A stretch of DNA of 55,345 nucleotides, taken from contig JACPAT010000030.1 in NCBI GenBank assembly GCA_016180655.1, positions 1 through 55,345 of the forward strand, in the 5' to 3' direction. The translations under genes and the position numbers were made by a program. How positions within the stretch are numbered: position 1 is the stretch's first letter; every line of letters starts with the position of its first letter. The stretch is from Candidatus Methylomirabilota bacterium (GTDB taxonomy: Bacteria > Methylomirabilota > Methylomirabilia > Methylomirabilales > 2-02-FULL-66-22). Shown one piece after another: positions 4,031 through 52,361 of this stretch. The notes under the pieces are model-generated. The model was given only the letters and a program-made list of their open reading frames with translations. It was not told the origin of the DNA and did no database searches.

Positions 4031-4061
4031 CAATGACCAATGACCAATGACCAATGACCAA
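4031..4061. repeat. Perfect heptamer array (CAATGAC)x4 plus CAA in the pilS-pilR spacer
   Basis: The sequence caatgac caatgac caatgac caatgac caa was read directly. It lies about 20 nt upstream of the proposed pilR start. Confidence 0.95.
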
Positions 4062-4066
4062 CTCCT

Positions 4067-4131
4067 GATGAAGCCGCCGGGTTCACCCCGGCGGAGAATC
4101 AGCCCGCGCCGCCCGAACCCCCGGCTTCATC
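4067..4131 (-). other. Nested GC-rich hairpins between pilS and pilR
   Basis: The outer stem pairs gatgaagccg (4067-4076) with cggcttcatc (4122-4131). It encloses an inner hairpin CCGCCGGG-ttcac-CCCGGCGG. Confidence 0.5.
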
Positions 4132-4158
4132 CCGGGGGCCAGTGACTGAGCTCCATGG

Positions 4159-6087
4159 CTACTTCCTGCTCTCCGCGCCGACCGTCACCGGCGCGCGGTG
4201 CAGCCAGATGCGGAAGGTGGTCCCGGTCCCCGGGCGGCTCTCCACCCCGATGCGGCCGTCCATGCTCTCGAGGAGCTTGCGCGCAATGGAGAGCCCCAGG
4301 CCGGTTCCCGAGGGTCGGGTCGTGTAGAACGGGTCGAAGATCCGTTCCAGCTCCTGCGGCGGGATTCCGCGACCCGTGTCGTGGAACACGATCTCCACCC
4401 ACTCACCGCCTGTCGGCGGTGTCGAGTAGTCAAGTGGTCGAGTAGTCAAATGGTCTTCTCGGCTCGAATCACCAGCTCTTCCGAATTGACCAATTGACGA
4501 ATTGACCAATTGGCCATCCCCCTCGGACGGCGATGTCAATTGGTCCATTGGTCGAGTAGTCAACTGGTCACTCTGCTTCGGAGCCTCGCCTTTCCCGAAT
4601 TGACCAATTGACGAGCTGACCGATTGACTCCCGTGCGGCGCAGGCCGCAGGGCAATGGTGAGGGTTCCCCCTTCGGACATGGCCTGCATCGCGTTGAGGC
4701 AGAGGTTCCACACGACCTGCCGGAGCTGATCCAGGTCGGCCAGGACATGCAGGTCCGGCTCCTCTTCCGTCAGGACCCAGGTCATCTCCGGATGGCGCTC
4801 ACTGCTCTTGGCGAGGAGGTGCAGCGTCTCGTCCAGCAGCGGGCGAAGCGGGCACGGGCGGAACAGCAGCGGTTGGGGCTTGGCAAAATCCAGGAACTGG
4901 CCGGTGATCAGCTTCAGGCGACTCGCCTCGCGCAGGATGATGTCCAGGAGCTGCCGCTGCGGTCCCGCGGGGGCAAGATCCTCGCGCAGGACCTCCACCG
5001 ATCCGCTGATCGCCGCCAGGGGATTGCGCACCTCGTGGGCGATGTTGGCCGCAAGCTGTCCCAGGGCGGCCAGGCGGTCTGCGCGGCGGAGGTGCTCTTC
5101 CACCCGCTTGCGCTCCGTGAGGTCCTGGAAGATGGCCACCAGGCCCACCGGCTCTCCCTCGGCCGCCCGCAGGGGAGAGCAGGCGATCCCGAGGGGGATC
5201 GGCCGGCCATCCCGTCGCTGGAGATACAGTTCCGTTGCCGGGGTCGCCAGGGGCGCCTCGGGCTGGGCGAAGAACTCGGCCAGGGCGGGGCAGGCCCCGA
5301 AGGGCGTCTCTTGCCAGGGTCGGTCCCGCAGGGCCTCGAAGTCGTAGCCGGTGATCTGTTCTGCGGCCGCATTGAAGGAGATGACCCGCCCTGCCAGGTC
5401 CAGGGTCAGGATCCCGCTGGGGATGTTGGCGACGATGGCCCAGTGCAGCGTCTGGAGGTTCCGGAGATCCAGTCCCCGCCGCTCCAGCTCCTGCCCGGCC
5501 TGCCTGAGGCGCTCCACCAGGTGGCTGCTGAGGATGGCCACGGCCAGGAAGGCGACCGCGTGGATCAGCACCTGGTAGACCGCGTATCCCGCGGGGCGGA
5601 GGGGGGCGAGGCCGCCCGCGAACTCCGCGGGGGGGAGGAGCCGCGTCCATTCCGCCGCCACCAGGATGCCGTACAGCCCGCCGCTGAGGATCGCCACCAG
5701 GAGGCTCCCCCGGCGCTCCAGCACGTTGGCGGCCCCGAAGATGACGAAGATGTACATGAAGGGGAAGGCAGAATCCAGGCCGCCGGTGAAGTGGACCAGC
5801 AGGCTCACCAGCCCCAGGTCCAAGCCCAATTGCACCAGCCCCTGGAACAGGAGATGCCGCTGGCTGCGGAGGGCCAGGGCGTAGACTAGGGAGAGGCCGA
5901 AGGTCAGGCCCAGCAGACCGTACAGCGGGGGGGTGGGAAAGGGCAGGCGCTCGTGCAGGTCCAGGGCGAAGGCCGAGCCCAGGAGGGCCGAGGCCAGGAG
6001 CAGCCGGATGCCCGTGAGCCACTTCAGCTTCTGGAGCATCCCGGGCGTCGCCCCGGCCGGGCGACGCGGCGCTTTCTCCCCGGGCAC
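4159..6087 (-). CDS. pilS: Sensor histidine kinase PilS, carrying a repeat-encoded insert in the ATPase domain
   Basis: It has an N-terminal multi-TM domain, a PAS region and an H-box (IAHEVRNPL). HATPase_c motifs are N box NLCLNAMQAM, G1 DTGRGI, F FDPFYTT and G2 GTGLGLS. The start is set at GTG 6087 with GGAGG 5 nt upstream. A ~75-aa insert lies between the N box and G1 (nt 4421-4628). Confidence 0.9.
   Translation of the reverse strand: MPGEKAPRRPAGATPGMLQKLKWLTGIRLLLASALLGSAFALDLHERLPFPTPPLYGLLGLTFGLSLVYALALRSQRHLLFQGLVQLGLDLGLVSLLVHFTGGLDSAFPFMYIFVIFGAANVLERRGSLLVAILSGGLYGILVAAEWTRLLPPAEFAGGLAPLRPAGYAVYQVLIHAVAFLAVAILSSHLVERLRQAGQELERRGLDLRNLQTLHWAIVANIPSGILTLDLAGRVISFNAAAEQITGYDFEALRDRPWQETPFGACPALAEFFAQPEAPLATPATELYLQRRDGRPIPLGIACSPLRAAEGEPVGLVAIFQDLTERKRVEEHLRRADRLAALGQLAANIAHEVRNPLAAISGSVEVLREDLAPAGPQRQLLDIILREASRLKLITGQFLDFAKPQPLLFRPCPLRPLLDETLHLLAKSSERHPEMTWVLTEEEPDLHVLADLDQLRQVVWNLCLNAMQAMSEGGTLTIALRPAPHGSQSVSSSIGQFGKGEAPKQSDQLTTRPMDQLTSPSEGDGQLVNSSIGQFGRAGDSSREDHLTTRPLDYSTPPTGGEWVEIVFHDTGRGIPPQELERIFDPFYTTRPSGTGLGLSIARKLLESMDGRIGVESRPGTGTTFRIWLHRAPVTVGAESRK
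4421..4513. repeat. Periodic-arm palindrome, GTCnnnnn family, copy 1 inside pilS
   Basis: The left arm is gtcgagta gtcaagtg gtcgagta gtcaaatg gtc. A 27-nt centre follows. The right arm is gaattgac caattgac gaattgac caattgg. Confidence 0.9.
4536..4628. repeat. Periodic-arm palindrome, GTCnnnnn family, copy 2 inside pilS
   Basis: The left arm is tcaattg gtccattg gtcgagta gtcaactg gtcac. A 25-nt centre follows. The right arm is gaattgac caattgac gagctgac cgattgac. Confidence 0.9.
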
Positions 6088-7436: not shown

Positions 7437-8549
7437 TTAGCGTCGCGCCGCCAGGTTCGCCCCCGCGTGTGGAGACTGGCCGCTCTGGGCCCGCTGGATC
7501 ATCTGCTGCAGCTCGTCGAGCTGCGTGGAAGCCCCCAGCGCCTGCTCCATGGTGATATTCCGCCGGAGGTAGTGCTGGAGCAGCGATTCGTTCATGGTCT
7601 GCATGCCGGACTTCTCCTTGCCGGTCTGCATCGTGCTGTAGATCTGGTGCAGCTTGTCCTCGCGGATCAGGTTCCGGATGGCGGCGTTGGGCACCATGAT
7701 CTCCAGGACCAGGACGCGGCCCTGCCCGTTGGCCCGGCGCAGCAGCATCTGGCACAGCACCCCCTCCAGCACGAAGGAGAGCTGCGCCCGGATCTGGGCC
7801 TGCTGGTGGGGGGGGAAGACGTCAATGATGCGGTTGATGGTCTGCACGGCCGAATTCGTGTGGAGCGTGCCGAAGGTCAGGTGGCCGGTCTCGGCGGTGG
7901 TCAGGGCGGCCTCGATGGTCTCCAGGTCCCGCATCTCGCCGATCAACACCTTGTCCGGGTCCTGCCGGAGGACCGACTTCAGCGCCGCCTTGAAGGAGTA
8001 GGTATCGGCGTGCAGCTCGCGCTGGTTCACCACGCACTTCTTGTGCAGGTGCACATACTCGATGGGATCCTCGATGGTGACGATGTGCTCCGCCTTCTCG
8101 CGGTTGATCTTGTCGATCATGGTGGCCAGGGTCGTGGATTTGCCCGAGCCCGTGGGGCCCGTCACCAGGATGAGCCCCTTGGGCCGTTCGCACAGGTCCG
8201 CCACCACCTTGGGCAGCCCCAGCTCGTCGAAGTTGAGGATCTTGAAGGGGATCGTCCGGATGGCGACGGCGACAGCCCCCCGCTGCACGAAGATGTTGGC
8301 CCGGAAGCGGCTGAGCCCCTTCACGCCGAAGGAGAGATCCAGCTCCTTCTGCTCCTCGAACTTCTGCTTCTGCGCGTCGGTGAGGATGCTGTAGGCCATG
8401 GCCTTGGTCTCGGCCGGGGCGAGGGGCTGCGAGCCCACGGGCGTCAGGTGGCCGTGCAGGCGGATCATGGGGGGGATGCCGGTGGTGATGTGGAGGTCCG
8501 ACGCCCCCTTGTCGATCATCTCCTTCAGCAGCTCGTGCAGATTCGGCAT
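7437..8549 (-). CDS. pilT: Twitching-motility retraction ATPase PilT
   Basis: It has Walker A GPTGSGKST and PilT-type Asp/His boxes. The AIRNLIRE motif is present. The start is set at ATG 8549 (MPNLHELL). Confidence 0.93.
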   Translation of the reverse strand: MPNLHELLKEMIDKGASDLHITTGIPPMIRLHGHLTPVGSQPLAPAETKAMAYSILTDAQKQKFEEQKELDLSFGVKGLSRFRANIFVQRGAVAVAIRTIPFKILNFDELGLPKVVADLCERPKGLILVTGPTGSGKSTTLATMIDKINREKAEHIVTIEDPIEYVHLHKKCVVNQRELHADTYSFKAALKSVLRQDPDKVLIGEMRDLETIEAALTTAETGHLTFGTLHTNSAVQTINRIIDVFPPHQQAQIRAQLSFVLEGVLCQMLLRRANGQGRVLVLEIMVPNAAIRNLIREDKLHQIYSTMQTGKEKSGMQTMNESLLQHYLRRNITMEQALGASTQLDELQQMIQRAQSGQSPHAGANLAARR

Positions 8550-8579
8550 GCCGTGGATCTCCCGCAACGGGGTCTCGGG

Positions 8580-10283
8580 CTAGTGGCCCGTGGTCACTCG
8601 CAAGATCTCCTCGAGGGTGGTCACGCCTTCGCGGATCTTCCCCAATCCTGCCTCCCGCAGGGTCTTCATGCCGTTTTTCCGCCCCAGCTCGCGCAGCTCG
8701 ATGACCGAGGCCCCCTGGAGGATGGCCTCCTTGATGTTGTCCCGGATGAGCATGACCTCGTACAGGGCCACGCGGCCCTTGTAGCCGGTCTCGCTGCATG
8801 CCATACAGCCCTTGCCCTTCATCGGGATGAGGGTGGCGGCCTCCTCGGGGCTGAACCCGATGTTCACCAGGGCCTGTGCGGGGAGCGGCGTGGGCTCCTT
8901 GCACTGCTGGCACACGCGGCGCGCCAGGCGCTGGGCCAGGATCACGTTGGTCGAGGCGGACACCAGGAACGGCTCCACCCCCATGTTCAACAGGCGGCTG
9001 ATGGTGCTGGGGGCGTCGTTGGTGTGAAGCGTGGACAGCACCAGGTGTCCCGTGAGGGCGGCCTTGATGGCGATCTCGGCCGTCTCGTAGTCGCGGATCT
9101 CCCCCACCATGATGATGTCCGGGTCCTGCCGCAGGAAGGATCGCAGGGCCGCGGCGAAGTTCAGCCCGATCTCCGCCTTCATCTGGACCTGGTTGATCCC
9201 GGGGAGGTTGAACTCCACCGGGTCCTCGGCGGTCATGATGTTGGTCTCGGTGGTGTTCAGGCGGTTCAGGGCGGAGTAGAGGGTGGTCGTCTTCCCCGAT
9301 CCGGTCGGCCCCGTGACCAGGACCATGCCGTAGGGCAAGAGGAGCCCGCTCTCGAAGTCCGTCAGGGCCTGGGAGTCGAACCCCAGCTTGGTCATGTCCA
9401 GCTGGAGGTTCCCCTTGTCCAGCAGCCGCAGGACCACCTTCTCGCCGAAGAGGGTGGGCAGGGTGGAGACCCGGTAGTCCATCTCCTTGCCCCCCATCTT
9501 GATCTTGATGCGACCGTCCTGGGGCAGCCGCCGCTCCGCGATGTCGAGCTGCGCCATGATCTTGACGCGGGAGGTGATGGCGGCCTTGAGCCGGGTGGGG
9601 GGCTGCATGACCTCGTACAGGACGCCGTCAATGCGGTACCGGACCCGGAAGGACTTCTCGTACGGCTCGATGTGAATGTCCGAGGCCCCCTTCTTGATGG
9701 CGTCGGTCAGGATCAGGTTCACCAGCTTGACGACGGGGGCGTCCTCGGCGGCCTGCCCCAGCTCGGCCGCGTTGATGCTGTCCTCGCTTTCCTTGAGGGC
9801 TTCGACGTCCTTGTCGTCGAAGTTCTTCATGATGTCCTCGACCATGCCGGCCGAGTCGTAGTGCTTGTTGATGGCGTTCTTGATGGAGGTCTCCGCCGCC
9901 ACCACCGGCTCCACCTTGAAGCCGGTCATGAACTTGATGTCGTCAATGGCGAAGATGTTGCTGGGGTCCGCCATGGCGACGGTCAGGACGTTGCCGGTGC
10001 GGTTGATGGGGATCACCTGGTGCTTCTGGGCGATCTCCGAGGGGATCAGCTTGATGACGGTGGCGTCGATCTCGAAGTGGCCGAGGTTGATGGAGGGGAC
10101 CCCGTACTGCCGGCTGAGGAAGGAGGTGATGTCGTCTTCGCTGATGAAGCCCAGCTTGACGAGGTTGGTCCCGATCCGGCCCCCGGAGGTCTCCTGCTGC
10201 TGCAGGGCCTTCGTGAGCTGTTCCTTGCTGATCAGAGTCGCCTTGACGAGCATGTCGCCGAGGCGCGCCGCTCCTACAGCCAT
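8580..10283 (-). CDS. pilB: Type IV pilus assembly ATPase PilB (GspE family)
   Basis: It has an N-terminal T2SSE_N domain and Walker A GPTGSGKTT. A tetracysteine motif is present (CQQC...CMAC). GAGGGA lies upstream of the ATG. Confidence 0.93.
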   Translation of the reverse strand: MAVGAARLGDMLVKATLISKEQLTKALQQQETSGGRIGTNLVKLGFISEDDITSFLSRQYGVPSINLGHFEIDATVIKLIPSEIAQKHQVIPINRTGNVLTVAMADPSNIFAIDDIKFMTGFKVEPVVAAETSIKNAINKHYDSAGMVEDIMKNFDDKDVEALKESEDSINAAELGQAAEDAPVVKLVNLILTDAIKKGASDIHIEPYEKSFRVRYRIDGVLYEVMQPPTRLKAAITSRVKIMAQLDIAERRLPQDGRIKIKMGGKEMDYRVSTLPTLFGEKVVLRLLDKGNLQLDMTKLGFDSQALTDFESGLLLPYGMVLVTGPTGSGKTTTLYSALNRLNTTETNIMTAEDPVEFNLPGINQVQMKAEIGLNFAAALRSFLRQDPDIIMVGEIRDYETAEIAIKAALTGHLVLSTLHTNDAPSTISRLLNMGVEPFLVSASTNVILAQRLARRVCQQCKEPTPLPAQALVNIGFSPEEAATLIPMKGKGCMACSETGYKGRVALYEVMLIRDNIKEAILQGASVIELRELGRKNGMKTLREAGLGKIREGVTTLEEILRVTTGH

Positions 10284-19638: not shown

Positions 19639-19756
19639 CCGCAAATGAACGCAAATGGACGCGAATGTCAAAGGGCCAAACCTCCGGAGAAAAACTTCGG
19701 GATGCGACCTACACTCATTGGCGTTCATTTGCGTGTATTTGCGGTTGCATTGGCGG
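19639..19756. repeat. Periodic-arm palindrome, ATGAACGC ~10-mer family, filling a permease-permease spacer
   Basis: The left arm is cgcaaatgaa cgcaaatgga cgcgaatg. The centre contains hairpin CCGGAG-aaaaa-CTTCGG. The right arm is cattggcgttcatttgcgtgtatttgcggttgcattggcg. It is homologous to the element at 37733-37880. Confidence 0.85.
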
Positions 19757-20422: not shown

Positions 20423-20493
20423 GGCAACTTGGCAAGTTGGCAACTGGGCAATCAGGCTGTTCTTCCCGGCTGCCTAATCGCCCAATTGCCGAG
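20423..20493. repeat. Periodic-arm palindrome, TGGCAA family
   Basis: The left arm is ggcaact tggcaag ttggcaac tgggcaatc. A GC-rich centre follows, then the right arm aatcgcccaattgccgag. An imperfect GC-rich hairpin follows at about 20498-20537. Confidence 0.8.
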
Positions 20494-21257: not shown

Positions 21258-21344
21258 TGATTGTCGATTTGCGATTGTCGATTGACGATTGGCCGGAACC
21301 CCGGCAAGAATCGGAAATCGTAAATCGGCAATCGTCAATTCAAG
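21258..21344. repeat. Periodic-arm palindrome, CGATTnn / nnAATCG family
   Basis: The left arm is tgattg tcgattt gcgattg tcgattg acgattgg. The centre is CCGGaaccCCGG. The right arm is caagaatcg gaaatcg taaatcg gcaatcg tcaattc. The right arm contains the stop codon of the upstream permease. Confidence 0.9.
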
Positions 21345-23768: not shown

Positions 23769-23854
23769 CATTTTCGATTGACGATTGTCGATTGACGATT
23801 GGGCAGGACGTTCCGAGACAATCGGCAATCGCAAATCGAAAATCGCCAATCAGG
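23769..23854. repeat. Periodic-arm palindrome, CGATTnn / nnAATCG family
   Basis: The left arm is cattttcgattgacgattgtcgattgacgattggg and the right arm is caatcggcaatcgcaaatcgaaaatcgccaatcagg. It fills the whole ATPase-SBP spacer. Confidence 0.9.
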
Positions 23855-25589: not shown

Positions 25590-25829
25590 ATGGAGGTCCT
25601 GAAAGCAGATCTGGTTCTCGACTGCAAGGGCGTGCTGTGCCCGATGCCTGTCATTCGAGTCTCGCAGGCGATCAAAACGATCGGCGTGGGCCAGATCCTG
25701 GAAGTGCAGACGACCGATCCGGGATCCCGCCCGGACATGGAGGCCTGGAGCAAGCAGACGGGCCACGAACTGCTGGCCAGCCAGGAAGGAAACCGTGTTT
25801 TCACCTTCTACGTGCGCCGAACCAAATGA
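25590..25829 (+). CDS. tusA: TusA/SirA-family sulfurtransferase
   Basis: This 79-aa protein carries the LDCKGVLCPMPV CPxP active-site motif. GGAGGGAGG lies upstream. Confidence 0.9.
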   Translation: MEVLKADLVLDCKGVLCPMPVIRVSQAIKTIGVGQILEVQTTDPGSRPDMEAWSKQTGHELLASQEGNRVFTFYVRRTK

Positions 25830-25876
25830 CCAATGCCAATGAACCAATTGGTCATTGAGAATGGTCATTGGTCATT
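25824..25876. repeat. Periodic-arm palindrome, CAATGAC / GTCATTG family
   Basis: aaatgac caatgcc aatgaac caatt|aattg gtcattg agaatg gtcattg gtcatt is centred on ccaattgg. The tusA TGA stop lies inside the left arm. Confidence 0.9.
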
Positions 25877-30273: not shown

Positions 30274-32988
30274 ATGCCAGCGGTCCTGGCGTCGTATAAA
30301 TCCGCAATCGCCGAATACATCCTGCCGTCCGTGACCAGGCCCTCCCGGTACATCGCGGGGGAATGGAACTCGGTGGGCAAGGACCCTGAGACGGCCGAGG
30401 TCCGGGTGGCCCTGGCGTTCCCCGATGCCTACGAGATCGGGATGTCGCACATGGGCCTCAAGATTCTGTACCAGATCCTGAACGCTCGCCCGGAGATCCT
30501 GGCGGAGCGAGCCTACGCCCCCTGGCTGGACGCCGAGGCGCTCTTCCGCCGCCACGGCATTCCCTTGTGCAGTCACGAATCGAGCCTCCCCCTGGGAAGC
30601 TTCGATATCCTGGGGTTCACCCTCCAGTACGAGTTGTCCTTCGCCACAATCCTCAACATGCTGGAGCTGGCGGGCATCCCCCTCTGCGCCTCCGACAGGG
30701 ACATCCGGCACCCGCTGGTGGTGGCCGGGGGGCCGGTCGCCTTCGCGCCGGAGCCGTTGGCGGACTTCATGGACGCCTTCCTCATCGGGGACGGCGAGGA
30801 GGCGACGCTGGAGCTGTGCGGGGTCGTCCGCGAATGGAAACGCGAGGGCGGGTCCCGCGAGGAACTGCTCCGCGCGGTGAAGGGGATTGCCGGGATGTAC
30901 GTCCCCGCCCTGCACCAGCCGGGCGAGGTCGTGCGGAAGCGGACCGCGCTGAAACTGGACGTCGTGGACTACGGCCAGTTCCCCGTCCCCTACATGGAGA
31001 TCGTCCACGACCGCGCCAACATCGAGGTGATGCGGGGCTGCGCGCAGGGCTGCCGCTTCTGCCAGGCCGGCTACATCTACCGGCCGATCCGCGAGCATTC
31101 CGCCCCGAGGATCCGGACCCTGGTGGACCAGGCGCTCCGGGGGACGGGGTATGAAGAAGTGTCGCTCTCTTCTCTCTCGATCGCCGACCTGTCGTGTCTC
31201 CGGGACCTGGTGCCGCCGCTCATGGCCAGCCTGATCCCGGACAAGACCTCCCTGAGTCTCCCGTCGCTGCGGGTCGAGGCCCTGAACCGCAACCCGGAGA
31301 TCGCCGCGGAGATCGGGAAGGTGAGAAAGACCGGGTTCACCATCGCGCCCGAGGCCGGCTCGGCCCGGTTGCGGAGGGTGATCAACAAGGAAGGATTCGA
31401 CGAGGAGCAGATCTTCACCGCGGTCCGGAACGCGGCCGGGGCCGGCTGGGAGTCGGTGAAGTTCTACTTCATGATCGGGCTCCCGACGGAGGAGCAGGCC
31501 GACCTGGACGAGCTGGTCCGCGTGGCCAAAGAGTCGGCGCGCATCGCCCGCCGGGAGAGTCCCCGAGGGTTCGGCCTGACGGTCAGCGTCGGCTCCTTCG
31601 TGCCCAAGCCGCATACCCCGTTCCAGTGGTTCGCGCAGGACCCGATGCCCATCCTCAAGGAGAAGCAGTCCTACCTGCGGGGGCGGCTGCGCGAGGCGCG
31701 GATCGATTTCAAGTGGCACCACGTCGAGTCGTCCTTCCTGGAAGCCGTGTTTACCCTGGGTGGCCGGGAGGTGGGTGCCGCCATCGCCCTGGGCCAGCAG
31801 CGTGGGTGCCGCTTTGACGGCTGGACGGAACAGCTCAAGTTCGACACCTGGATGGAGGCGCTGGAGGACGCAGGCGTCGATCCCTCCGCCATCGCCAACC
31901 GGCCGCGCGGCCTGGACGAGCCGCTGCCCTGGGACCACATCGACTGCGGGGTCTCCAGGCAGTTCCTGAAGCGGGAGCACAAGAAGGCGCTGCAGGTCAA
32001 GGGGACCCCGGACTGCCACGTGGGTCCCTGCAGCAACTGCGGCGAGGTCTGCGTCCCCAACTGGCGGACCTGGGCGCAGGAAGTCGGCATGATCGAAGTA
32101 GAGCCGCGAGCCGCGAGCCGCGAGCCGGGAGCCGAGAGCCACGAACCGGACACGGCGAGGCCCGAGGCACGACAGGCCATTGGTCAAGTGGTCAATCAGT
32201 CAATAAGTCTTGACGAATCGACCAATGGACCAGTTGACCACTCGACTCGGCGGAGCCGGGTACCCCCTGGGGGGGTGCCGGCCCGGCAGCCGGCCCAGAA
32301 GATCCGATTCGAATTCCAGAAGGTGGGCGAGCTCCGCTACCTCTCCCACCTGGAACTGATGCGGGCACTGCAGCGCGCCTTACGGCGCGCCGGCGTGCCG
32401 CTGGCCTACACGCAGGGCTTCAATCCCCAGCCGAAGGTCTCGGTGGCCCAGGCGCTGGCCGTGGGCGTGGAGGGCCTGCAGGAACTGGGGGAAGTGGAGC
32501 TCACCTCGCGGGTAGACCCGGCGGACCTGCTGGCGGGCTGGAACAGGCATCTGCCGCCCGAACTCAAGATTCTCCGGGCCTGGGAAGCCCCCCTGAACGA
32601 GCCGTCGCTTTCCACCGGGGTACGAGGTGCGTCGTATCAGATTCGGTTGCAGCCGAACGGCTGGGATTCCACCACCCTGGCCGCCCTCGGCACCGCCGGG
32701 GCCTGCGCCGACTTCCTGGCGCAGGGCCCCATCCCCGTCGAGGTATCCAAGAAAGGACAGACGGTGACCCTCGACGCGCGCCCCTTTGTCCAAGGATTCA
32801 CCGCCACGTCGGAGGGCGAGTCCCCCCAGTGGGAACTCACCCTCCGGGCCGGTCTGGGGGGCAGCGTCAAGCCCCAGGCGGTCATGCGGAGTTTCCTCGG
32901 ACGTTGGGTCCCCCCCGGCGAGCTGGATCGGATGATCTCGTCCCTGCGGATCACGCGGACGGCTCTCGCCCTCGAGGGCCAGGGGTAG
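30274..32988 (+). CDS. B12-binding-domain radical SAM protein fused to a DUF2344-type radical-SAM-linked domain
   Basis: The start is ATG 30274 (AAGGAG 6 nt upstream). A CX3CX2C motif is present (CAQGCRFCQAG). The C-terminal domain (RFEFQKVGELRYLSHLELMRALQRALRRAGVPLAYTQGFNP) is typical of the protein usually encoded next to rne/rng. The linker contains repeat-encoded sequence (32101-32246). Confidence 0.88.
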   Translation: MPAVLASYKSAIAEYILPSVTRPSRYIAGEWNSVGKDPETAEVRVALAFPDAYEIGMSHMGLKILYQILNARPEILAERAYAPWLDAEALFRRHGIPLCSHESSLPLGSFDILGFTLQYELSFATILNMLELAGIPLCASDRDIRHPLVVAGGPVAFAPEPLADFMDAFLIGDGEEATLELCGVVREWKREGGSREELLRAVKGIAGMYVPALHQPGEVVRKRTALKLDVVDYGQFPVPYMEIVHDRANIEVMRGCAQGCRFCQAGYIYRPIREHSAPRIRTLVDQALRGTGYEEVSLSSLSIADLSCLRDLVPPLMASLIPDKTSLSLPSLRVEALNRNPEIAAEIGKVRKTGFTIAPEAGSARLRRVINKEGFDEEQIFTAVRNAAGAGWESVKFYFMIGLPTEEQADLDELVRVAKESARIARRESPRGFGLTVSVGSFVPKPHTPFQWFAQDPMPILKEKQSYLRGRLREARIDFKWHHVESSFLEAVFTLGGREVGAAIALGQQRGCRFDGWTEQLKFDTWMEALEDAGVDPSAIANRPRGLDEPLPWDHIDCGVSRQFLKREHKKALQVKGTPDCHVGPCSNCGEVCVPNWRTWAQEVGMIEVEPRAASREPGAESHEPDTARPEARQAIGQVVNQSISLDESTNGPVDHSTRRSRVPPGGVPARQPAQKIRFEFQKVGELRYLSHLELMRALQRALRRAGVPLAYTQGFNPQPKVSVAQALAVGVEGLQELGEVELTSRVDPADLLAGWNRHLPPELKILRAWEAPLNEPSLSTGVRGASYQIRLQPNGWDSTTLAALGTAGACADFLAQGPIPVEVSKKGQTVTLDARPFVQGFTATSEGESPQWELTLRAGLGGSVKPQAVMRSFLGRWVPPGELDRMISSLRITRTALALEGQG
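32101..32149. repeat. GC-rich heptamer array (GAGCCGC-like)x7 inside the radical-SAM linker
   Basis: The seven units are gagccgc gagccgc gagccgc gagccgg gagccga gagccac gaaccgg. The array translates as EPRAASREPGAESHEP. Confidence 0.95.
32177..32246. repeat. Periodic-arm palindrome, GTCnnnnn family, in frame inside the radical-SAM fusion
   Basis: ccattggtc aagtggtc aatcagtc aataagtc | ttgacgaa tcgaccaa tggaccag ttgaccac tcgac translates as AIGQVVNQSISLDESTNGPVDHST. Confidence 0.9.
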
Positions 32989-34612: not shown

Positions 34613-34694
34613 GTCGACTAGTCAATTGGTCGAGTGGGCGAATAGTGGGGAGCCTCCGGGACCAATTGACGAGTTGACCATTTGACTATTCGAC
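34613..34694. repeat. Periodic-arm palindrome, GTCnnnnn family
   Basis: The left arm is gtcgacta gtcaattg gtcgagtg ggcgaata gtgg. The centre is GGAGcCTCC. The right arm is gaccaatt gacgagtt gaccattt gactattc gac. Confidence 0.9.
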
Positions 34695-34750: not shown

Positions 34751-34783
34751 CCCCGTCTCGGCGAGAGGCGGGGTCCTTTTTTT
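34751..34783 (+). terminator. Intrinsic-terminator-like hairpin plus T7 tract in the rplU leader
   Basis: CCCCGTCTC-ggcga-GAGGCGGGG forms 9 bp including one G-U pair. It is followed by tcc TTTTTTT (34777-34783). It sits between the predicted promoter and rplU. Confidence 0.55.
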
Positions 34784-34797
34784 GGGCTGTGCCCAAC

Positions 34798-34818
34798 GAT
34801 TTCGGATTTCGGATTTGC
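34798..34818. repeat. Single heptamer arm (GATTTCG)x3 in the rplU leader
   Basis: gatttcg gatttcg gatttgc was read directly. Confidence 0.85.
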
Positions 34819-35495: not shown

Positions 35496-37732
<2,237 letters not shown>

Positions 37733-37759
<27 letters not shown>

Positions 37760-37880
37760 ACGCAGATACGGATGGACCCGCAGGTGAACGCCAATGAACG
37801 CGAATTCTCAAGGACCGAAACTCCGCACTCCCATCGTCTGTGCCCAATGATCAGCGTTCATCTGCGTGTATCTGCGGTTC
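37733..37880. repeat. Periodic-arm palindrome, ATGAACGC ~10-mer family, spanning the proB-proA junction
   Basis: The left arm is cagatgaacg cagataaacg cagatacgg ... caggtgaacg ccaatgaacg cgaattc. The centre is tcaaggaccgaaactccgcac.. and the right arm is caatgatcagcgttcatctgcgtgtatctgcggttcc. The core is homologous to 19639-19756. Confidence 0.85.
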
Positions 37881-37896
37881 CCGTGAGGTTTTTTTC

Positions 37897-39185: not shown

Positions 39186-39887
39186 ATGCGCCTCGGCATC
39201 ATGGGGGGGACATTCGATCCGATCCACCTGGGCCACCTGCGGGCGGCCGAGGAGATCTACTGGGCCTTCGGCCTGGACCGGATCATCTTCGTCCCGGCGG
39301 CCCGTCCGCCCCACAAGGAGGAGGCCGTGGCCGCCTCGGCGCTCCACCGGTACGAGATGGTCTCCCTGGCCACGGTCTTCACGCCGTATTTCACGGTCTC
39401 CTCCATCGAGCTGCAGCGACCGGGGACGTCCTACTCCGTGGAGACGGTCCGGGAATTCCAGAAGATGTCCGGGCCGGAGACGACGCTCTACTTCGTGGTG
39501 GGGGTGGACGCCTTCCTGGGGATGTCGGCCTGGCGGCAGGCGCGGGAGCTGCTCAGCCTGACCCGGGTCATCGTGACCGCGCGGCCAGGCTGGCGCCTCG
39601 ACGAGGTGGAGCGGCTGCTCACCCCCGAGCAGGGGAAGATCCTGGGGAACCCCACCTTCCGGTACCTGAAGATCGCCGACATCGATCCCGAGCGGGTGGA
39701 GCGGGAGTTCACGCCCCTCCAGGTCCTCCTGGTAGAGGTGGTGTCGCTGGACATCGCCTCCCGGGAGATCCGGCAGTTGGTGGAGGAGGGGCGGAGCATC
39801 CGCCACCTGGTGCCGGACACGGTGGCGGCCTACATGGCCAAGAACCGGCTGTACCAGCGGCCGCGACCCGGCCGCTCACGCGCCTAG
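39186..39887 (+). CDS. nadD: Nicotinate-nucleotide adenylyltransferase NadD
   Basis: The sequence is MRLGIMGGTFDPIHLGHL... with a (H/T)xGH motif and a C-terminal ISSTxxR-like SREIR. Confidence 0.92.
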   Translation: MRLGIMGGTFDPIHLGHLRAAEEIYWAFGLDRIIFVPAARPPHKEEAVAASALHRYEMVSLATVFTPYFTVSSIELQRPGTSYSVETVREFQKMSGPETTLYFVVGVDAFLGMSAWRQARELLSLTRVIVTARPGWRLDEVERLLTPEQGKILGNPTFRYLKIADIDPERVEREFTPLQVLLVEVVSLDIASREIRQLVEEGRSIRHLVPDTVAAYMAKNRLYQRPRPGRSRA

Positions 39888-40004
39888 GCAATCTGGCAAC
39901 TGGGCAATTTGGCAATCGGGAAGTCGGGTAACCTGGCAACTGGGCAATCGGGCAACCCCGCCATCGGCGGGGCAACCCGGAACTCCTGATTGCCGGATTG
40001 CCGG
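39887..40004. repeat. Periodic-arm palindrome, TGGCAA family (longest array)
   Basis: The left arm is ggcaatc tggcaac tgggcaat ttggcaatc gggaagtc gggtaacc tggcaac tgggcaatc gggcaacc. The centre is CCGCCatcGGCGG. The right arm is ggcaacccggaactcctgattgccggattgccgg. It starts at the nadD stop. Confidence 0.9.
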
Positions 40005-45896: not shown

Positions 45897-46112
45897 CGGG
45901 ACGACGCAGGACGGGCCGGCCCCCGCTTGTCCGGGGATGACCGCCGTGTGACGGGAGGCGATCCCCGGGGACGCCCGGAGCGGGACGGTCCCGAGGCGGT
46001 CGCCTGGCCGCTTCGAGCGGGCCGGCGCGCCAGGCATGGCATTGCAGTTCCCCACGGATGATCGGAGGAGGGCGATCAGGACGTGGCGGGGACACCGAGC
46101 GGAGGTGTCAGC

Positions 46113-47306: not shown

Positions 47307-47391
47307 GTCGAATGGTCGAGTGGTCAATACGTCAATTCGTCGTTACAGTCCGCAGGGACGAATGGACTGATTGACGATTTGACCAATTGAC
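47307..47391. repeat. Periodic-arm palindrome, GTCnnnnn family
   Basis: The left arm is gtcgaatg gtcgagtg gtcaatac gtcaattc gtcgttac agtc. The centre is cgcaggg. The right arm is acgaatg gactgatt gacgattt gaccaatt gac. It fills the pgk-tpiA spacer up to the tpiA RBS. Confidence 0.9.
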
Positions 47392-50165: not shown

Positions 50166-50322
50166 TTCGTGTCGCGTTGGCCGCGACCAACCCGACACGA
50201 ATCGCCCTTGAGAACGGTTGTACCCGTCGCACAACCAGTGATGGCTTGGTTGAGTCGTTTCCCAAGACAACATTGAACGCATTCATCAAGGGCGATCCGT
50301 ATCGGGTAAGACCCGATGCGGA
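50166..50322 (+). other. Multi-helix structured spacer between the binding-protein and permease genes
   Basis: Hairpin 50166-50201 is TTCGTGTCG..GTTGG-ccgcga-CCAAC..CGACACGAA. A 10-bp closing stem pairs TCGCCCTTGA (50202-50211) with TCAAGGGCGA (50286-50295) and encloses two inner hairpins (GGTTGT/ACAACC and CTTGG/CCAAG). A further hairpin lies at 50296-50322 (TCCG.ATCGGG-taaga-CCCGAT.CGGA). Confidence 0.6.
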
Positions 50323-50351: not shown

Positions 50352-51341
50352 ATGCTGACCTACCTGATCCGGCGCCTGCTCATCTCCATCCCGCTCCTCC
50401 TGGGGATCCTGTGCCTGTCCTTCCTCATGCTGAAGCTGGCGCCGGGCGAACCGGGCGTCATCCAGCAGGACCTTCAGGCGCGGGCCACGGGCGCCCAGCG
50501 AGAGACCCTGCGCCAACTGTACGGCCTGGACAAACCGATCTACGTGCAGTTCGGGCGCTGGCTGTGGCGGGTCATCCGCCTGGACTTCGGACGGTCCTAC
50601 AGCCCTGACGGGCGCGCGGCGCTGGACAAGATCGCCGAGCGGATCCCCATCACGTTGGGGCTGAACGTCCTGGAACTGCTCATCATCTTCTCCGTCGCCG
50701 TGCCACTGGGCATTCTCTCCGCGACCCGCCAGTACTCCGCCTTCGACAAGTCCATGACGCTGTTCGTGTTCGTCGGGTTCGCCACGCCGGACTTCTGGCT
50801 CGCGCTGCTCATGATGATCCTGTTCGGCGTGCAACTGGGCTGGCTGCCCATGTCGGGCCTCCGGTCCCTGAACTTCGAGTACCTGGATTTCTGGGCGCAG
50901 GTCTGGGACATCCTCTCGCATCTCCTCTTGCCCGTTCTGGTGGCCTCCTTCGGGGGCCTGGCGTACCTGTCGCGCCTGATGCGGGGAAGCCTCCTGGAGG
51001 TCGTCCGCCAGGACTACATCCGCACGGCGCGGGCCAAGGGCCTGCCCGAGGGGGACGTGATCTACAAGCATGCGGTGCGCAACGCGGTCATCCCCGTGGT
51101 CACGCTCTTGGGGATGATGCTCCCGGGCCTCCTCGGCGGCAGCGTGTTCATCGAGACGGTGTTCGCCATCCCCGGCATGGGGCAGCTTTTCGTCCAGAGC
51201 GCCTTCTCCCGGGACGAGCCGGTGCTCATGGCCCTGATCGTCATCGGGGCCAGCCTGTCGCTCCTGGGCAACATCCTGGCCGACGTCTCCTATGGCCTGG
51301 TGGACCCGCGGATCCGGGTTTCCGGACGGGAGGCGCGCTAG
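50352..51341 (+). CDS. ABC transporter permease (DppB/OppB-like)
   Basis: The N-terminus is MLTYLIRRLLISIPLLLGI. The EAA region is DYIRTARAKGLPEGDVIYKHAVRNA. Confidence 0.93.
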   Translation: MLTYLIRRLLISIPLLLGILCLSFLMLKLAPGEPGVIQQDLQARATGAQRETLRQLYGLDKPIYVQFGRWLWRVIRLDFGRSYSPDGRAALDKIAERIPITLGLNVLELLIIFSVAVPLGILSATRQYSAFDKSMTLFVFVGFATPDFWLALLMMILFGVQLGWLPMSGLRSLNFEYLDFWAQVWDILSHLLLPVLVASFGGLAYLSRLMRGSLLEVVRQDYIRTARAKGLPEGDVIYKHAVRNAVIPVVTLLGMMLPGLLGGSVFIETVFAIPGMGQLFVQSAFSRDEPVLMALIVIGASLSLLGNILADVSYGLVDPRIRVSGREAR

Positions 51342-51342
51342 C

Positions 51343-52254
51343 GTGTCGGGATTCAGGAGAGTCAAGGGGACCGGGCAGATCCTGGAGGAGGGGATCCCGT
51401 CCACGGGACGCCCGGCGCTCCGGCGAGGCTTCTTCTGGCGGCAATTCCGCAGGAACCAACTGGCGGTCTGCGGCGGGGCCGTGGTTCTGGTCATGACGGT
51501 CGCCGCCCTGCTCGCCTCGGTGCTGGCCCCCTACGATCCCGGCGCCTACGACGTGACGCAGATCCTGATGCCGCCCGGCCCGGCCCACTGGCTGGGGACC
51601 GACCAGATCGGCCGCGACGTCCTGAGCCGGATGCTGTTCGGGGCGCGCATCTCCATGGCGGTGGGGTTCGTCTCCGTCGGGATCGCCGTGGTGGTGGGGA
51701 CGCTCTTCGGCACGGTGGCGGCCTATTACGGGGGCCGGGTGGACGAGGTGCTCATGCGATTTGTGGACCTCATGCTCAACTTCCCGCGCCTGTTCCTCCT
51801 GCTCACCCTGATCGCCTTGTTGCGCCCCAGCATCTGGGTCATCATGGCCGTCATCGGACTCACCGGGTGGATGGGCCTCGCCCGGCTGGTCCGGGGCGAG
51901 ATCCTGAGCCTGAAGGAGCGGGAGTTCGTCCTGAGCGCCCGCGCCCTGGGTGCGCGCGATCCCCGGATCATGTTCCGCCACATCCTCCCCAATGCCCTGG
52001 TCCCCGTCCTGGTCTCCGCCACGCTGGGGGTGGCCGGCGCCATCCTGGCCGAGTCGGGCCTCTCCTTCCTTGGCCTGGGGGTGCAGCCGCCGACGCCGAG
52101 CTGGGGGAACATCCTCATCGAGGGGAAGGCCAACATCGAGATCGCCTGGTGGCTCTCGGTCTTCCCCGGTCTGGCCATCCTGCTGACGGTCCTGGCCTAC
52201 AACCTCCTGGGCGAAGGACTGCGGGACGCGCTGGATCCCCGCCTGCGACAATAA
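51343..52254 (+). CDS. ABC transporter permease (DppC/OppC-like)
   Basis: The GTG start at 51343 lies 1 nt after the upstream TAG, with GGGAGG upstream. It contains HWLGTDQIGRDVLSRMLFGAR and the EAA region EFVLSARALGARDPRIMFRHILPNA. Confidence 0.92.
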   Translation: MSGFRRVKGTGQILEEGIPSTGRPALRRGFFWRQFRRNQLAVCGGAVVLVMTVAALLASVLAPYDPGAYDVTQILMPPGPAHWLGTDQIGRDVLSRMLFGARISMAVGFVSVGIAVVVGTLFGTVAAYYGGRVDEVLMRFVDLMLNFPRLFLLLTLIALLRPSIWVIMAVIGLTGWMGLARLVRGEILSLKEREFVLSARALGARDPRIMFRHILPNALVPVLVSATLGVAGAILAESGLSFLGLGVQPPTPSWGNILIEGKANIEIAWWLSVFPGLAILLTVLAYNLLGEGLRDALDPRLRQ

Positions 52255-52361
52255 TTGTCCGATTTGCGATTTGGGATTGTGGATTTTCGATTTCCGGACG
52301 GGACCCCGCGGTTTCCACGGGCAGTCGGCAATCGGCGATCGTCAATCGAAAATCGACAATC
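52255..52361. repeat. Periodic-arm palindrome, CGATTnn / nnAATCG family, between convergent genes
   Basis: The left arm is ttgtccgatttgcgatttgggattgtggattttcgatttccgg and a GC-rich centre follows. The right arm is agtcggcaatcggcgatcgtcaatcgaaaatcgacaatc. Confidence 0.9.

Follow-up and report, generated by a model that had tools for sequence, protein, structure and literature searches.

Hairpins of the STRR or heptamer simple-sequence-repeat (SSR) type, known since 1990, abound in several phyla, and their function has never been settled. The STRR literature reportedly includes Mazel 1990 and Vioque 1997. In cyanobacteria, STRR heptamer hairpins sit between the co-transcribed genes hupS and hupL, where they were proposed to increase transcript stability or to give translational coupling (PMC2670836). 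The GGGAATC arrays of Xanthomonas are about 90% intergenic and lie mostly in the gaps between co-directional ORFs (Rehm et al. 2015, PMC4692102). They are mostly transcribed, stand about 28 nt from the upstream ORF and prefer four units, and 70-75 cases among about 185 arrays consist of two close convergent arrays capable of forming a stem-loop. Orthologous junctions retain the repeat while its length and sequence vary, and the G-tract-rich units were interpreted as G-quadruplex formers (PMC4692102). Direct heptamers of TAACTGA occur in marine Beggiatoaceae, cyanobacteria and Bacteroidetes (MacGregor 2015, PMC4679880); they lie a few nt from start codons, many of which lack a canonical ribosome-binding site, are found in ribosomal-protein operons among other places, and were proposed to have a translational role.

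The stretch of DNA analysed here (the window, 55,345 nt) comes from an uncultured Methylomirabilota-like bacterium and contains about fifteen elements able to form hairpins, with short tandem repeats as their arms. These elements are very probably STRR-type (long simple-sequence-repeat) hairpins of one Methylomirabilota sub-lineage. Their architecture is not new; it is of a known kind, with a function that is unsettled in cyanobacteria and Xanthomonas too. A preliminary description of the window had singled out the arm-level periodicity as odd; a claim that it is unprecedented falls to the cyanobacterial STRR (PMC2670836) and the Xanthomonas GGGAATC arrays (PMC4692102).

Tandem-repeat arms in the window

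Tandem Repeats Finder (TRF) detected arrays of period 7, 8 or 10, together with 14-/16-nt super-periods, at every position where the preliminary description had placed AT-richer 7-, 8- and 10-nt arrays, and a separate periodicity scan of the window recovered the same set. By a strict count there were 13 AT-richer arrays, against 0 in 100 shuffles that preserved local composition. The five unit families and the GC-rich centres were likewise recovered, the motifs being GATT/AATC, GTC/GAC, GGCAA and GCAAATGAAC. In the usual layout a left array is followed by a GC-rich centre and a reverse-complement array, with arms of about 4-5 units in most elements. The longest inverted repeats of the window are elements I1-I5, I7, I8, I14, I16 and I18, and each element folds well below shuffled sequence (z -2.5 to -6.8). 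The elements had all been called palindromes, which holds for 14 of 16, whereas 4031-4061 and 34798-34818 are one-armed direct arrays. The elements are as follows.

4031..4061, unstranded: one-armed direct array, (CAATGAC) x4.4 (100% matches in TRF), in the gap between the stop of a pilS-like kinase and the start of an NtrC-type regulator (genes on the minus strand, assigned by Pfam), about 20 nt upstream of the regulator start; no inverted partner was found by the inverted-repeat search of the window
4421..4513, minus strand: octamer family, copy 1, GTCnnnnn x4, centre, nnnnnGAC x4; in frame within the ATP-lid loop of HATPase_c in a PilS-like histidine kinase, whose HATPase_c domain is split into two stretches by Pfam
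4536..4628, minus strand: octamer family, copy 2 (I3), translated in frame; duplicated in tandem with copy 1 at a distance of about 114-115 nt
19639..19756, unstranded: 10-mer family, CGCAAATGAA units followed by TTCATTTGCG units, between two ABC permease genes (minus strand), 2 nt past the upstream stop codon; z = -6.3; I2, with 34-nt arms 85% complementary; homologous to the 37733 element
20423..20493, unstranded: octamer, GGCAAnnn then nnnTTGCC, in the gap between a solute-binding-protein gene and a permease gene (minus strand)
21258..21344, unstranded: heptamer, GATTnnC x5, centre CCGGAACCCCGG, GnnAATC x5; z = -6.8; includes the upstream permease TGA and ends 15 nt ahead of a solute-binding-protein ATG
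23769..23854, unstranded: heptamer, CGATTGn x5 then nCAATCG x5, in the gap that runs from an ABC ATPase stop, 1 nt distant, to the ribosome-binding site of a solute-binding-protein gene; I5, with 25-nt arms 88% complementary; partial orthologue in locus L101
25824..25876, plus strand: heptamer, CAATGAC then GTCATTG; includes the tusA-like TGA and ends 14 nt ahead of a DsrE-like ATG
32177..32246, plus strand: octamer family (I7), in frame in a radical-SAM/DUF2344 domain linker
34613..34694, plus strand: octamer family (I16), 5 nt past the RNase G stop and upstream of the rplU promoter
34798..34818, plus strand: one-armed (GATTTCG) x2.7 in the 5' leader of rplU, past its terminator
35496..35574, plus strand: heptamer element filling the rpmA-obg gap; two ATTTCGG units, the first 5 nt past the rpmA stop, centre CACCCTGTGGGTG, and a right arm of four AAATCCn units reaching into the obg ATG; a Shine-Dalgarno sequence is lacking
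37733..37880, plus strand: 10-mer family (I1, I4) between proB and proA; the left arm encodes the proB C-terminus and includes the proB TAA, and the right arm ends 14 nt ahead of the proA GTG
39887..40004, plus strand: octamer, GGCAAnnn x9, centre CCGCCATCGGCGG, ATTGCCGG x2; begins at the nadD TAG
47307..47391, plus strand: octamer family in the pgk-tpiA gap; z = -6.8; 3 nt past the pgk stop, with the tpiA ribosome-binding site and ATG following after 11 nt
52255..52361, unstranded: heptamer (I8), CGATTTn x5, long GC-rich centre, GnCAATC x6, filling the gap of two convergent genes

Co-directional gaps and tolerant protein loops harbour most elements, and the one divergent gap of the window holds none. 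The upstream stop codon is in most cases inside the element or 0-5 nt from it, and the downstream end stands just ahead of the next ribosome-binding site. The reported overlaps with the tusA TGA, the proB TAA, a permease TGA and the obg ATG were all present, as were the three in-frame intragenic copies (4421..4513, 4536..4628 and 32177..32246). In this respect the kinase and radical-SAM copies resemble the Rickettsia RPEs, which are likewise located in frame within genes. The statement that most short gaps are filled proved too strong: on a rough reading, about half of the co-directional gaps of at least 60 nt contain an element, and the remainder hold ordinary GC-rich hairpins. A GC-rich (GAGCCGC) x6.9 array occupies 32101-32148, ahead of the element at 32177..32246.

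As in STRR and other long SSRs, whose units of 5-11 nt stand head to tail with three or more per array, the window units form tandem arrays far above chance, and convergent complementary arrays are able to form a stem-loop. Within this 55-kb sample the arrays are biased to non-coding co-directional gaps near the upstream ORF, and their abundance is sporadic and lineage-specific, with length and sequence varying at orthologous junctions.

Relation to known repeats

Like the cyanobacterial STRR, the window elements use tandem units of ~7 nt as both hairpin arms between genes that are, or probably are, co-transcribed, are abundant in particular lineages and have the same proposed functions (stability, coupling). 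They differ in phylum, in GC content (the host genome has 68% GC), in unit length (7, 8 or 10 nt) and in comprising at least five motif families; moreover, some window copies are translated in frame inside genes, and one shows measurable purifying selection. The unit CAATGAC/GTCATTG presumably equals the Calothrix STRR2 unit TTGGTCA read in another phase. Among the Xanthomonas GGGAATC and Nostoc GGGGAYT repeats (PMC4692102), the former have a GC-rich host and convergent pairs, as in the window. The Xanthomonas unit rotated to AATCGGG resembles the window AATCGnn family, though in the opposite arm. Unlike the Xanthomonas units, most window units have no G-tracts, yet the architecture and the 4-5-unit arms are the same, which argues against the G-quadruplex as the common denominator. 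The TAACTGA arrays are comparable to the rpmA-obg element and to the one-armed arrays at 4031 and 34798; nearly all of them are one-armed with a single motif, whereas the window has mostly inverted pairs and several motifs.

According to PMC3116915, PMC2817692 and PMC8266576, REP/BIME/REPIN sequences resemble the window elements as ~100-nt extragenic, hairpin-forming inverted pairs in operon gaps, and the tandem alternation of BIME is matched at 4421-4628. A REP is a 20-40-nt imperfect palindrome with a GTAG-type head, conserved across hundreds of copies and associated with a RAYT (TnpA-REP) transposase gene, whereas the window arms are tandem arrays sharing just a 3-5-nt core, and REP/BIME/REPIN were rejected on this last ground. 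PMC2649163, PMC2229807 and PMC10969869 likewise present Correia (CREE), ERIC and Rickettsia RPE as 100-150-nt transcribed fold-back elements of operons, similar to those of the window. RNase III can bind CREE hairpins, which are cleaved or protected, and thereby changes the expression of neighbouring genes; small mobile repeats of MITE type are both intragenic and intergenic. Unlike the window elements, the Correia, ERIC and RPE families are marked by a conserved consensus, by terminal inverted repeats and by target duplications, and they lack periodic arms.

A CRISPR array was rejected because the units are 7-10 nt long, contiguous and without spacers, as opposed to CRISPR repeats of 24-48 nt with spacers. 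Rfam gave no match at gathering thresholds and nothing relevant at E <= 1. The earlier exclusion of CRISPR and REP/BIME was borne out. Intrinsic terminators were also rejected: the scan matches the rplU leader and not the elements, the sole overlap being a weak 5-bp site at 37873-37885.

Conservation and change among relatives

The elements are real and lineage-specific. Three NCBI MAGs and two Logan assemblies, all 99.2-99.9% identical to the window, contain them without any unit-number indel. Over ten additional contigs (NCBI, JGI and ENA) carry diverged versions at the corresponding junctions. Repeats are a known source of misassembly, and nothing else was found in favour of a short-read assembly or binning artefact. 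Because the five independent assemblies match base for base, that explanation is refuted, its probability being practically nil, and the elements are genuine, as had been supposed. They are present in relatives with at least 83% Obg identity and not in relatives at 77-78%. Among window-clade loci that span 4.7 kb or more, most have 2.3-5.6 elements per 10 kb (L087, L088 and L090 have 0-1.4). In 80 obg loci from other species the density is 0.28 per 10 kb, and in the GC-rich subset of these it is 0.17. At least ten relatives share the gene order of the window.

Comparison of these loci shows that elements change by gain and loss of units in situ, by whole-element duplication and by nested insertions at the centre, and that the 10-mer family additionally changes by dispersal to other loci. 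At the nadD-rsfS junction, with the same flanks, the left arm has 9 units in the window, 6 in L087 (a site of 6+4 units) and 2 in L101. A protein alignment of PilS-like kinase homologues revealed 0, 1 or 2 copies of the encoded peptide in the loop. The L095 orthologue of 25824..25876 carries a 38-nt insertion at its centre, and small GC-rich palindromes are nested in element centres. Relatives differ at the proB-proA junction in presence and in unit family: the window element has orthologues in L095 and L099 and a remnant in L096, and is absent from L088, L097 and L098. Orthologues of the radical-SAM linker element (32177..32246) were found in L086 and L095. The array at 34798..34818 differs in unit number among relatives and is missing in L088 and L090. 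The rng-rplU element (34613..34694) has orthologues in L086, L087 and L090, and is decayed in L088, L096 and L098; among the orthologues core identity is 92-96%, and the variable positions are 53-72% identical, about the level of 4-fold sites. Since several orthologous elements decayed or were lost without replacement, many copies may be dispensable. No unit indels were seen among near-identical strains, and the arrays are therefore not hypermutable switches. The suggested slippage is supported by the 2, 6 and 9 units at one orthologous site, the stability among near-identical strains notwithstanding.

Replication slippage and template switching might generate and reshape periodic palindromes in AT-richer spacers as a neutral or selfish by-product without function, which would persist since a fold-back insert hardly disturbs an operon or a surface loop. 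Such an origin would account for the differences in unit number and in presence, for unlike unit families at one junction (proB-proA), for decayed copies and for the tolerance of in-frame copies in a kinase loop and a domain linker. The roughly neutral drift of variable positions fits it as well, as does the lack of covariation and strand asymmetry described below, and polymerase slippage was invoked for the heptamer excess of other genomes (Mrazek 2007, as related in PMC4679880). We nevertheless consider it unlikely, because the periodic cores are kept while neighbouring positions drift, near-identical strains have no unit indels, and the conservation of the rpmA-obg element resembles that of coding sequence under constraint. 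Arm size is also alike across elements (mostly ~4-5 units) rather than free-running, and Xanthomonas likewise prefers four.

Dispersal of the 10-mer family raises the question whether the elements are MITE- or REPIN-like, non-autonomous and mobilized in trans by a transposase whose gene lies elsewhere in the genome. This family occurs at three unrelated loci (two in the window, in opposite orientation relative to transcription, and L099:4870), and two of its copies share the non-periodic centre; its dispersed copies are homologous over their whole length. Octamer-family copies have a common 4+4 layout with some unit-specific similarity, one insertion is polymorphic within a gene, and GC-rich mini-palindromes are nested at centres, all of which would suit a mobile element. 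On the other hand, the aligned octamer-family flanks have neither target-site duplications nor conserved termini, and the centres of most family members are unrelated, for which reasons a MITE of the Correia, ERIC or RPE type was rejected. The arms are not individually palindromic, unlike those of REPs, growth from 2 to 9 units in place requires no transposition, and Pfam scans found no transposase among the window genes. We therefore give mobility in trans very little probability.

Arm pairing, the rpmA-obg element and possible function

The cores of 3-5 nt yield a stem of ~30 bp in which short helices are broken by regular mismatches. In register 77% of the cells are paired, as against 13-44% once the arms are slid, and octamer positions 6 and 8 are systematic mismatches. 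Only the core of each unit is kept, and arm complementarity stems solely from it. The observed unit order folds no better than permuted orders (Fisher p = 0.46), and paralogues show no covariation (77.2% paired vs 76.5% in shuffles); pairing beyond the core is thus not maintained. Sense folding was better in 6 elements and antisense in 7. Because sense folds no better than antisense, there is no G-U signature of selection on the RNA.

TRAP and HutP recognize short motifs (NAG triplets) spaced 5-7 nt on an mRNA leader by means of a ring-shaped protein. The window arrays might similarly be binding sites for an oligomeric protein on RNA (in the manner of TRAP, HutP, CsrA, S1 or Csp) or on double-stranded DNA, the periodic core being the recognised motif and the inverted arrangement secondary. 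This would fit the conservation of a fixed-spacing core alone, with positions between cores that neither pair nor covary, and the one-armed arrays in 5' leaders (4031, 34798 and L099:4870). Arrays of (AAAATCY)n, moreover, abut the obg ATG both in the window clade and in an unrelated Acidobacteriota MAG, and similar proposals were made for TAACTGA repeats (PMC4679880) and Nostoc heptamers (bioRxiv 10.1101/2022.06.06.494920). However, TRAP and HutP arrays are single-stranded and one-armed, whereas those of the window have other motifs and carry a complementary arm, which would be needless for a single-strand binder. Five motifs would call for several proteins, the three different periods (7, 8 and 10) make a single partner less economical, and the window yielded no candidate protein. 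Such an array of protein sites appears improbable to us.

The rpmA-obg element is far more conserved than synonymous sites, and this comparison points to strong purifying selection. The 46 nt ahead of the obg ATG are identical to the window by 98% in L087, 89% in L096, 80% in L099 and 83% in L101, whereas 4-fold sites of the flanking genes reach 52-73% in the same comparison (L087, L096 and L099) and the adjoining coding DNA is just 83-85% identical in L087. Over the whole gap, identity is 0.79-0.90 among the closest relatives of type A and 0.81-0.83 among those of type B, compared with 0.45-0.87 at obg 4-fold sites. The two arms switch motif jointly between lineages and 3 of 7 RNAalifold pairs are compensatory, although this covariation is a motif switch between two lineage types that represents few independent events, and at -3 kcal/mol the RNAalifold energy is weak. 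The obg AUG is predicted to be paired, with a probability of about 1 in L081 and L086, its predicted partner being the segment directly after the rpmA stop. According to this folding model, the element would sequester the obg start codon. The obg gene has no Shine-Dalgarno sequence in relatives without the element, too.

We presume that the elements are transcribed and folded. The chances are about even, in our estimate, that the STRR-type hairpins are transcribed within operons and that some of them serve translational coupling or mRNA stability, while an RNA-level function of the elements can be put forward only tentatively, at slightly less than even chances. In the operon mRNA the arms would pair and fold the insert away, so that the upstream stop codon and the downstream start would be juxtaposed at the stem base. 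At obg, and wherever else the stem includes the start region, ribosomes that terminate on the upstream gene might melt the stop-proximal arm and free the start, which would amount to translational coupling. The stem-loops of other junctions might act as 3' or 5' RNase barriers and lead to unequal amounts of operon products, for example around solute-binding-protein genes. In most elements the ribosome-binding site lies outside the stem, which counts against such an RNA-level role, as do the opposite orientation of the two 10-mer copies relative to transcription, the lack of strand asymmetry and of covariation among paralogues, the missing Shine-Dalgarno sequence of obg in relatives without the element too, and the decay or loss of several orthologous elements. 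The earlier idea that hairpins set expression within operons gains partial, indirect support from one junction, through the conservation, the joint motif change and the predicted start sequestration at rpmA-obg.

A broader model, to which we assign a low probability, is that a dedicated factor or the terminating ribosome reads the periodic cores and that repeat hairpins form a cross-phylum device for coupling or gating translation. The device would recur in the window clade, cyanobacteria, Xanthomonas, a Clostridiales MAG, Anaerolineae and an Acidobacteriota MAG, and the (AAAUCY)n leader of obg in two phyla would then be its first conserved instance.

For the annotation of MAGs, the elements matter in that they give rise to false N-terminal extensions of ORFs and place translated inserts within real proteins. 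The non-G-rich units with Xanthomonas-like arms of 4-5 units weaken the G-quadruplex reading of the Xanthomonas repeats. The clade itself is a useful comparative series, in which slippage, whole-element duplication and decay are visible at single junctions. The series includes one element under clear purifying selection, with stop and start codons predicted at one stem base, and this geometry makes the idea of translational coupling from cyanobacteria concretely testable.

Periodic arrays and their anatomy

Tandem Repeats Finder detected arrays of period 7, 8 and 10, together with 14- and 16-nt super-periods, at all coordinates listed in the preliminary description, and an independent autocorrelation scan of the window recovered the same set. 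When a strict array was defined by at least three units, at least 80% self-identity and a GC content at least 8 points under the window mean (68%), 13 were counted in the window and none in 100 shuffles that kept local composition. The array population is confirmed as real and well beyond chance. Inspection of the sequences revealed a left array and a right array, the latter made of the reverse-complement unit, on either side of a GC-rich centre that spans 2-50 nt and in many cases is itself a small palindrome. No inverted repeats in the window are longer than these elements, and all of their folds lie well under those of shuffled sequence (z -2.5 to -6.8). The elements are thus shown to be SSR-like arrays in inverted pairs. 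Most of the palindromes first listed have this layout, while two are one-armed; the five unit families stand as they were described.

One-armed arrays and unit families of the window
4031-4061: one-armed direct array
34798-34818: one-armed direct array
Unit family 1: GTCnnnnn, then nnnnnGAC
Unit family 2: CAATGAC, then GTCATTG
Unit family 3: GATTnnC or ATTTCGG, then AATC-type units
Unit family 4: GGCAAnnn, then TTGCC-type units
Unit family 5: 10-mer of GCAAATGAAC type

Three repeats of other kinds were also observed. A GC-rich heptamer array, (GAGCCGC) x6.9, lies at 32101-32148 and is translated in-frame in the radical-SAM/DUF2344 linker, directly 5' of the octamer element; the corresponding site in the relative L095 carries (CAGAGCC)n. 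A perfect 35-nt tandem duplication (54709-54778, 2.0 copies, 100% identity) occupies the 3' end of the ORF ending at 54855. A long non-periodic inverted repeat (50190-50307, 22-nt arms, 91% complementary, 74-nt loop) is situated in AT-richer DNA separating the SBP_5 gene from its permease gene, and is a different kind of intercistronic hairpin.

Searches at Rfam gathering thresholds and at E <= 1 returned nothing relevant, and neither tRNA nor tmRNA was found. The elements do not qualify as intrinsic terminators in a terminator scan, nor do the TTGAC units score as promoters in a promoter scan. CRISPR, REP/BIME and a MITE with target duplication were rejected on anatomy, which for CRISPR and REP/BIME agrees with the preliminary description.

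The exact window Obg protein was found on three NCBI MAG contigs and in two Logan assemblies. Across the elements their DNA matches the window at 99.2-99.9% identity, and no element shows a unit-number indel. The elements are therefore not assembly artefacts, since five independent assemblies carry them, nor are they hypermutable on this time scale, which rules out phase-variation loci. Segments of 84, 100 and 198 nt (30321-30404, 41522-41620 and 45912-46108) are missing from the near-identical contig L081 (otherwise 99.5-99.9% identical); two of them fall within ORFs, the third in the gap-pgk spacer, none is a periodic element, and they are strain deletions or assembly differences. In a second near-identical contig, L082, 6 of 38 differences from the window fall in the 70-nt intragenic octamer element (32198-32241). 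Several match the sequence of L095, and the cluster resembles the outcome of allele exchange more than that of point mutation.

Window Obg is 77% identical to that of an NCBI MAG labelled candidate division NC10, and closer NCBI homologues are named Methylomirabilota or NC10. We compared the obg neighbourhood in relatives at 95, 89, 89, 88, 86, 85, 85, 83 and 78% Obg identity and in six metagenome contigs. Arrays were found in relatives down to 83% Obg identity and in none at 78% and 77%, being absent at 78% though gene order is kept. Across 80 obg loci of other species, array density is about ten times lower.

Position within operons and pairing between the arms

On the Pfam gene map of the window, the minus strand carries an amino-acid ABC transporter operon in the order racemase, ATPase, solute-binding protein (SBP), permease, permease, SBP, permease, permease. 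Each SBP gene is preceded by an element, the second is also followed by one, and another sits between the final two permease genes. On the plus strand one element separates tusA from dsrE, and another lies in the linker of the radical-SAM/DUF2344 gene that follows. Then come RNase G-element-promoter-rplU-rpmA-element-obg-proB-element-proA-nadD-element-rsfS and pgk-element-tpiA. In most cases an element begins 0-5 nt past the upstream stop codon or contains it, the tusA TGA, the proB TAA and a permease TGA all being found inside as had been claimed. Most elements end just 5' of the next ribosome-binding site, and at obg the element reaches into the ATG. The statement that most short gaps are filled was too strong, because on a rough reading only about half of the co-directional gaps of at least 60 nt carry an element; ordinary GC-rich hairpins occupy the rest.

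Further observations concern this gene cluster. A conserved rplU leader (34700-34790) consists of a TTGACA/TATAGA-type promoter, a terminator-like hairpin CCCCGTCTCGGCGAGAGGCGGGG and a T7 run 5' of rplU. It recurs in L081-L083, L086-L088 and L090-L095, has no Rfam match and looks like an L21-type ribosomal-protein attenuator. A metagenome scan with the leader pattern gave 6 loci only, too few for a covariance model. At 40120-40160 and in orthologues, a conserved GGAGGnACTGCCAT(A/C)GACTC precedes the RsfS domain, which suggests a non-canonical rsfS start codon, ATA or ATC, preceded by a strong ribosome-binding site. In the relative L087, an insert of about 1.1 kb with two small ORFs (7860-9000) separates the rplU promoter from the rng-proximal octamer element, with a stray CAAGTTTGACCAGTTGAC fragment at its far side.

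The preliminary description had proposed to compare arm complementarity with that of shuffled arrays. Among seven aligned octamer-family copies, 77% of cells pair in register, compared with 13-44% after the partner has been shifted by 1-3 columns; octamer positions 6 and 8 show systematic mismatches. Shuffled partners pair at 76.5%, and therefore these seven copies show no element-specific covariation beyond column composition. Permuting the units of one arm gave equally good folds (Fisher p = 0.46, 14 elements), which rules out unit-by-unit palindromes. A search for G-U pairs favoured on the transcribed strand found no asymmetry between sense and antisense folding (6 versus 7). Hence the register, permutation and strand tests together place the hairpin potential in a conserved 3-5-nt core per unit (GTC/GAC, GATT/AATC etc.) facing its complement, and not in unit-by-unit palindromy. 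The predicted stem is of about 30 bp, with short helices and regular internal mismatches.

Change and constraint at orthologous junctions

Comparison of orthologous junctions revealed both the presence/absence and the unit-number variation that the preliminary description had proposed to look for. At the nadD stop, between identical flanks, the array has 9+2 units in the window, 6+4 in L087 and 2 in the relative L101 (TAG GCAATCT GGCAACCCCGCC). These differences are attributable to unit slippage, and the 2, 6 and 9 left-arm units bear out the suggestion of slippage-prone elements. In the proB-proA gap, the window, L095 and L099 have the 10-mer family and L096 a remnant of it, L087 and L101 have a CCAATGA heptamer array instead, and L088, L097 and L098 have nothing. 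L088, L096 and L098 carry decayed copies of the rng-rplU element. Nested centre insertions occur at rpmA-obg (CACCCTGTGGGTGCC, window lineage only) and in the tusA-dsrE element of L095 (38 nt). The ATP-lid loop of the window kinase carries two inserts, its homologues P0121-P0123 one of about 33 residues, and P0140, P0150 and P0238 none; the two window copies are evidently a whole-element duplication. The 10-mer copies at 19639 and 37733, which lie in opposite orientation, can be aligned across both arms and part of the centre, and a third, one-armed copy at another locus of L099 indicates that the family is dispersed. Taken across lineages, the comparison shows that the elements lengthen and shorten where they stand, undergo duplication, at times disperse and are tolerated in-frame in protein loops. 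A GC-rich palindrome family, CCTGCCTGCCGCGCC...GGCGCAGGCAGG, was also seen inside or adjoining periodic arrays at two loci of L087 (5282-5312 and 9108-9140), with a variant in the L101 proB-proA gap; a search of the window found it not above chance.

The view of every copy as a selected RNA structure is weakened because folding shows no strand asymmetry, paralogues do not covary, the two 10-mer copies are opposite in orientation and copies have been lost. For the bulk of the population, a by-product tolerated by the host is a serious rival explanation. Against this stands the conservation of particular parts. Between orthologues of the rng-rplU element, identity is 92-96% in the GTC/GAC cores and 53-72% at the remaining positions, the latter being about the level of flanking-gene 4-fold sites; a protein may read the periodic cores.

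A heptamer element fills the rpmA-obg gap and abuts the ATG in every relative with at least 83% Obg identity. The 46 nt 5' of the obg ATG are 98, 89, 83 and 80% identical to the window in L087, L096, L101 and L099, respectively, and flanking-gene 4-fold sites are 52-73% identical in L087, L096 and L099. Recombination was ruled out as the cause, because directly adjacent coding DNA is only 83-85% identical in L087. Two lineage types, A and B, were distinguished. Whole-gap identity is 0.79-0.90 for the closest type-A relatives, 0.81-0.83 within type B and about 0.5-0.6 between types, with obg 4-fold identity of 0.45-0.87 for the same pairs. Between types both arms swap motif together, ATTTCGG with CCGAAAT versus GTCGATTGTGG with CCCACATCGAC, and this joint switch gives 3 compensatory pairs of 7 (RNAalifold). 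Comparison of orthologues shows the signature of constraint on the periodic cores and on at least one whole element. In the predicted minimum-energy fold of the window lineage and L086, the 11 nt after the rpmA stop would pair with AAAUCCGAAAU, a stretch that takes in A and U of the start codon of obg, at a computed pairing probability of about 1. A Shine-Dalgarno sequence is lacking at obg.

Known relatives and possible roles

We take the CAATGAC/GTCATTG unit of the window to be a rotation of the Calothrix STRR2 unit TTGGTCA. Arms made of tandem units, at first regarded as the odd part, are already documented. Cyanobacterial repeats of 7 bp, known as STRR (short tandemly repeated repetitive), fold into a hairpin loop between the hupS and hupL genes of several species; what they do is unknown, with raised transcript stability or translational coupling proposed (PMC2670836). 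Xanthomonas campestris and X. axonopodis each have about 185 GGGAATC-type arrays, two of which lie close by and convergent in 70-75 cases. About 90% are intergenic, around 28 nt from the upstream ORF, with four units preferred; they vary at orthologous junctions and most are transcribed (PMC4692102). Heptamer arrays adjoining start codons are reported from Beggiatoaceae (PMC4679880) and Nostoc (bioRxiv 10.1101/2022.06.06.494920), and an excess of 5-11-nt SSRs in scattered genomes is traced, in the summary in PMC4679880, to Mrazek 2007. Our literature search found no report of such elements for Methylomirabilota. The kind of element is thus known, and what is new is its occurrence in this phylum, with octamer and decamer units besides heptamers.

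Similar arrays were noticed elsewhere. In L066, an Acidobacteriota MAG (3620-3710 and 4085-4191), (AAAATCY) x4.7 directly adjoins the obg ATG, two GATTnnn units stand about 50 nt upstream, and another 500 nt upstream there is an inverted (GATTTTA)/(AATCGAA) pair; motif and position are as in the rpmA-obg element of the window clade, yet the phylum is different. L075, a Clostridiales MAG, has heptamer arrays at 3802-3896, 5487-5625, 12146 and 16411, one just upstream of obg, in the layout (GTTGACA)n, GTCCCGAAGGGAC, (TGTCAAC)n. Paired arrays of the same architecture lie near obg in L075 and L044 (Anaerolineae, 50-115), as they do in L066; L018 has a single array at 2913. Therefore the phenomenon recurs in unrelated genomes.

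The function of repeat hairpins is unsettled, here as elsewhere, and the earlier interpretation, hairpins that set expression within operons or a slippage-prone element, is partly supported. We propose that the elements would be transcribed within operon mRNAs and fold back, which would take the insert out of the linear path so that the upstream stop and the downstream start meet at the foot of the stem. Hairpins of the Correia and REP kinds reportedly serve as RNase barriers or sites of processing that set unequal product levels (for Correia and other palindromic MITEs, PMC2649163, PMC2229807, PMC10969869). By analogy, the stem-loops that flank the SBP genes or follow rpmA and pgk may act likewise and lead to unequal product levels. 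In the case of rpmA-obg, the stop-proximal arm would be covered by the terminating ribosome and the region of the start thereby freed, which would amount to translational coupling. The added value of the present analysis lies in the comparative evidence for selection and in the stop/start geometry at rpmA-obg, and the coupling hypothesis is therefore directly testable.
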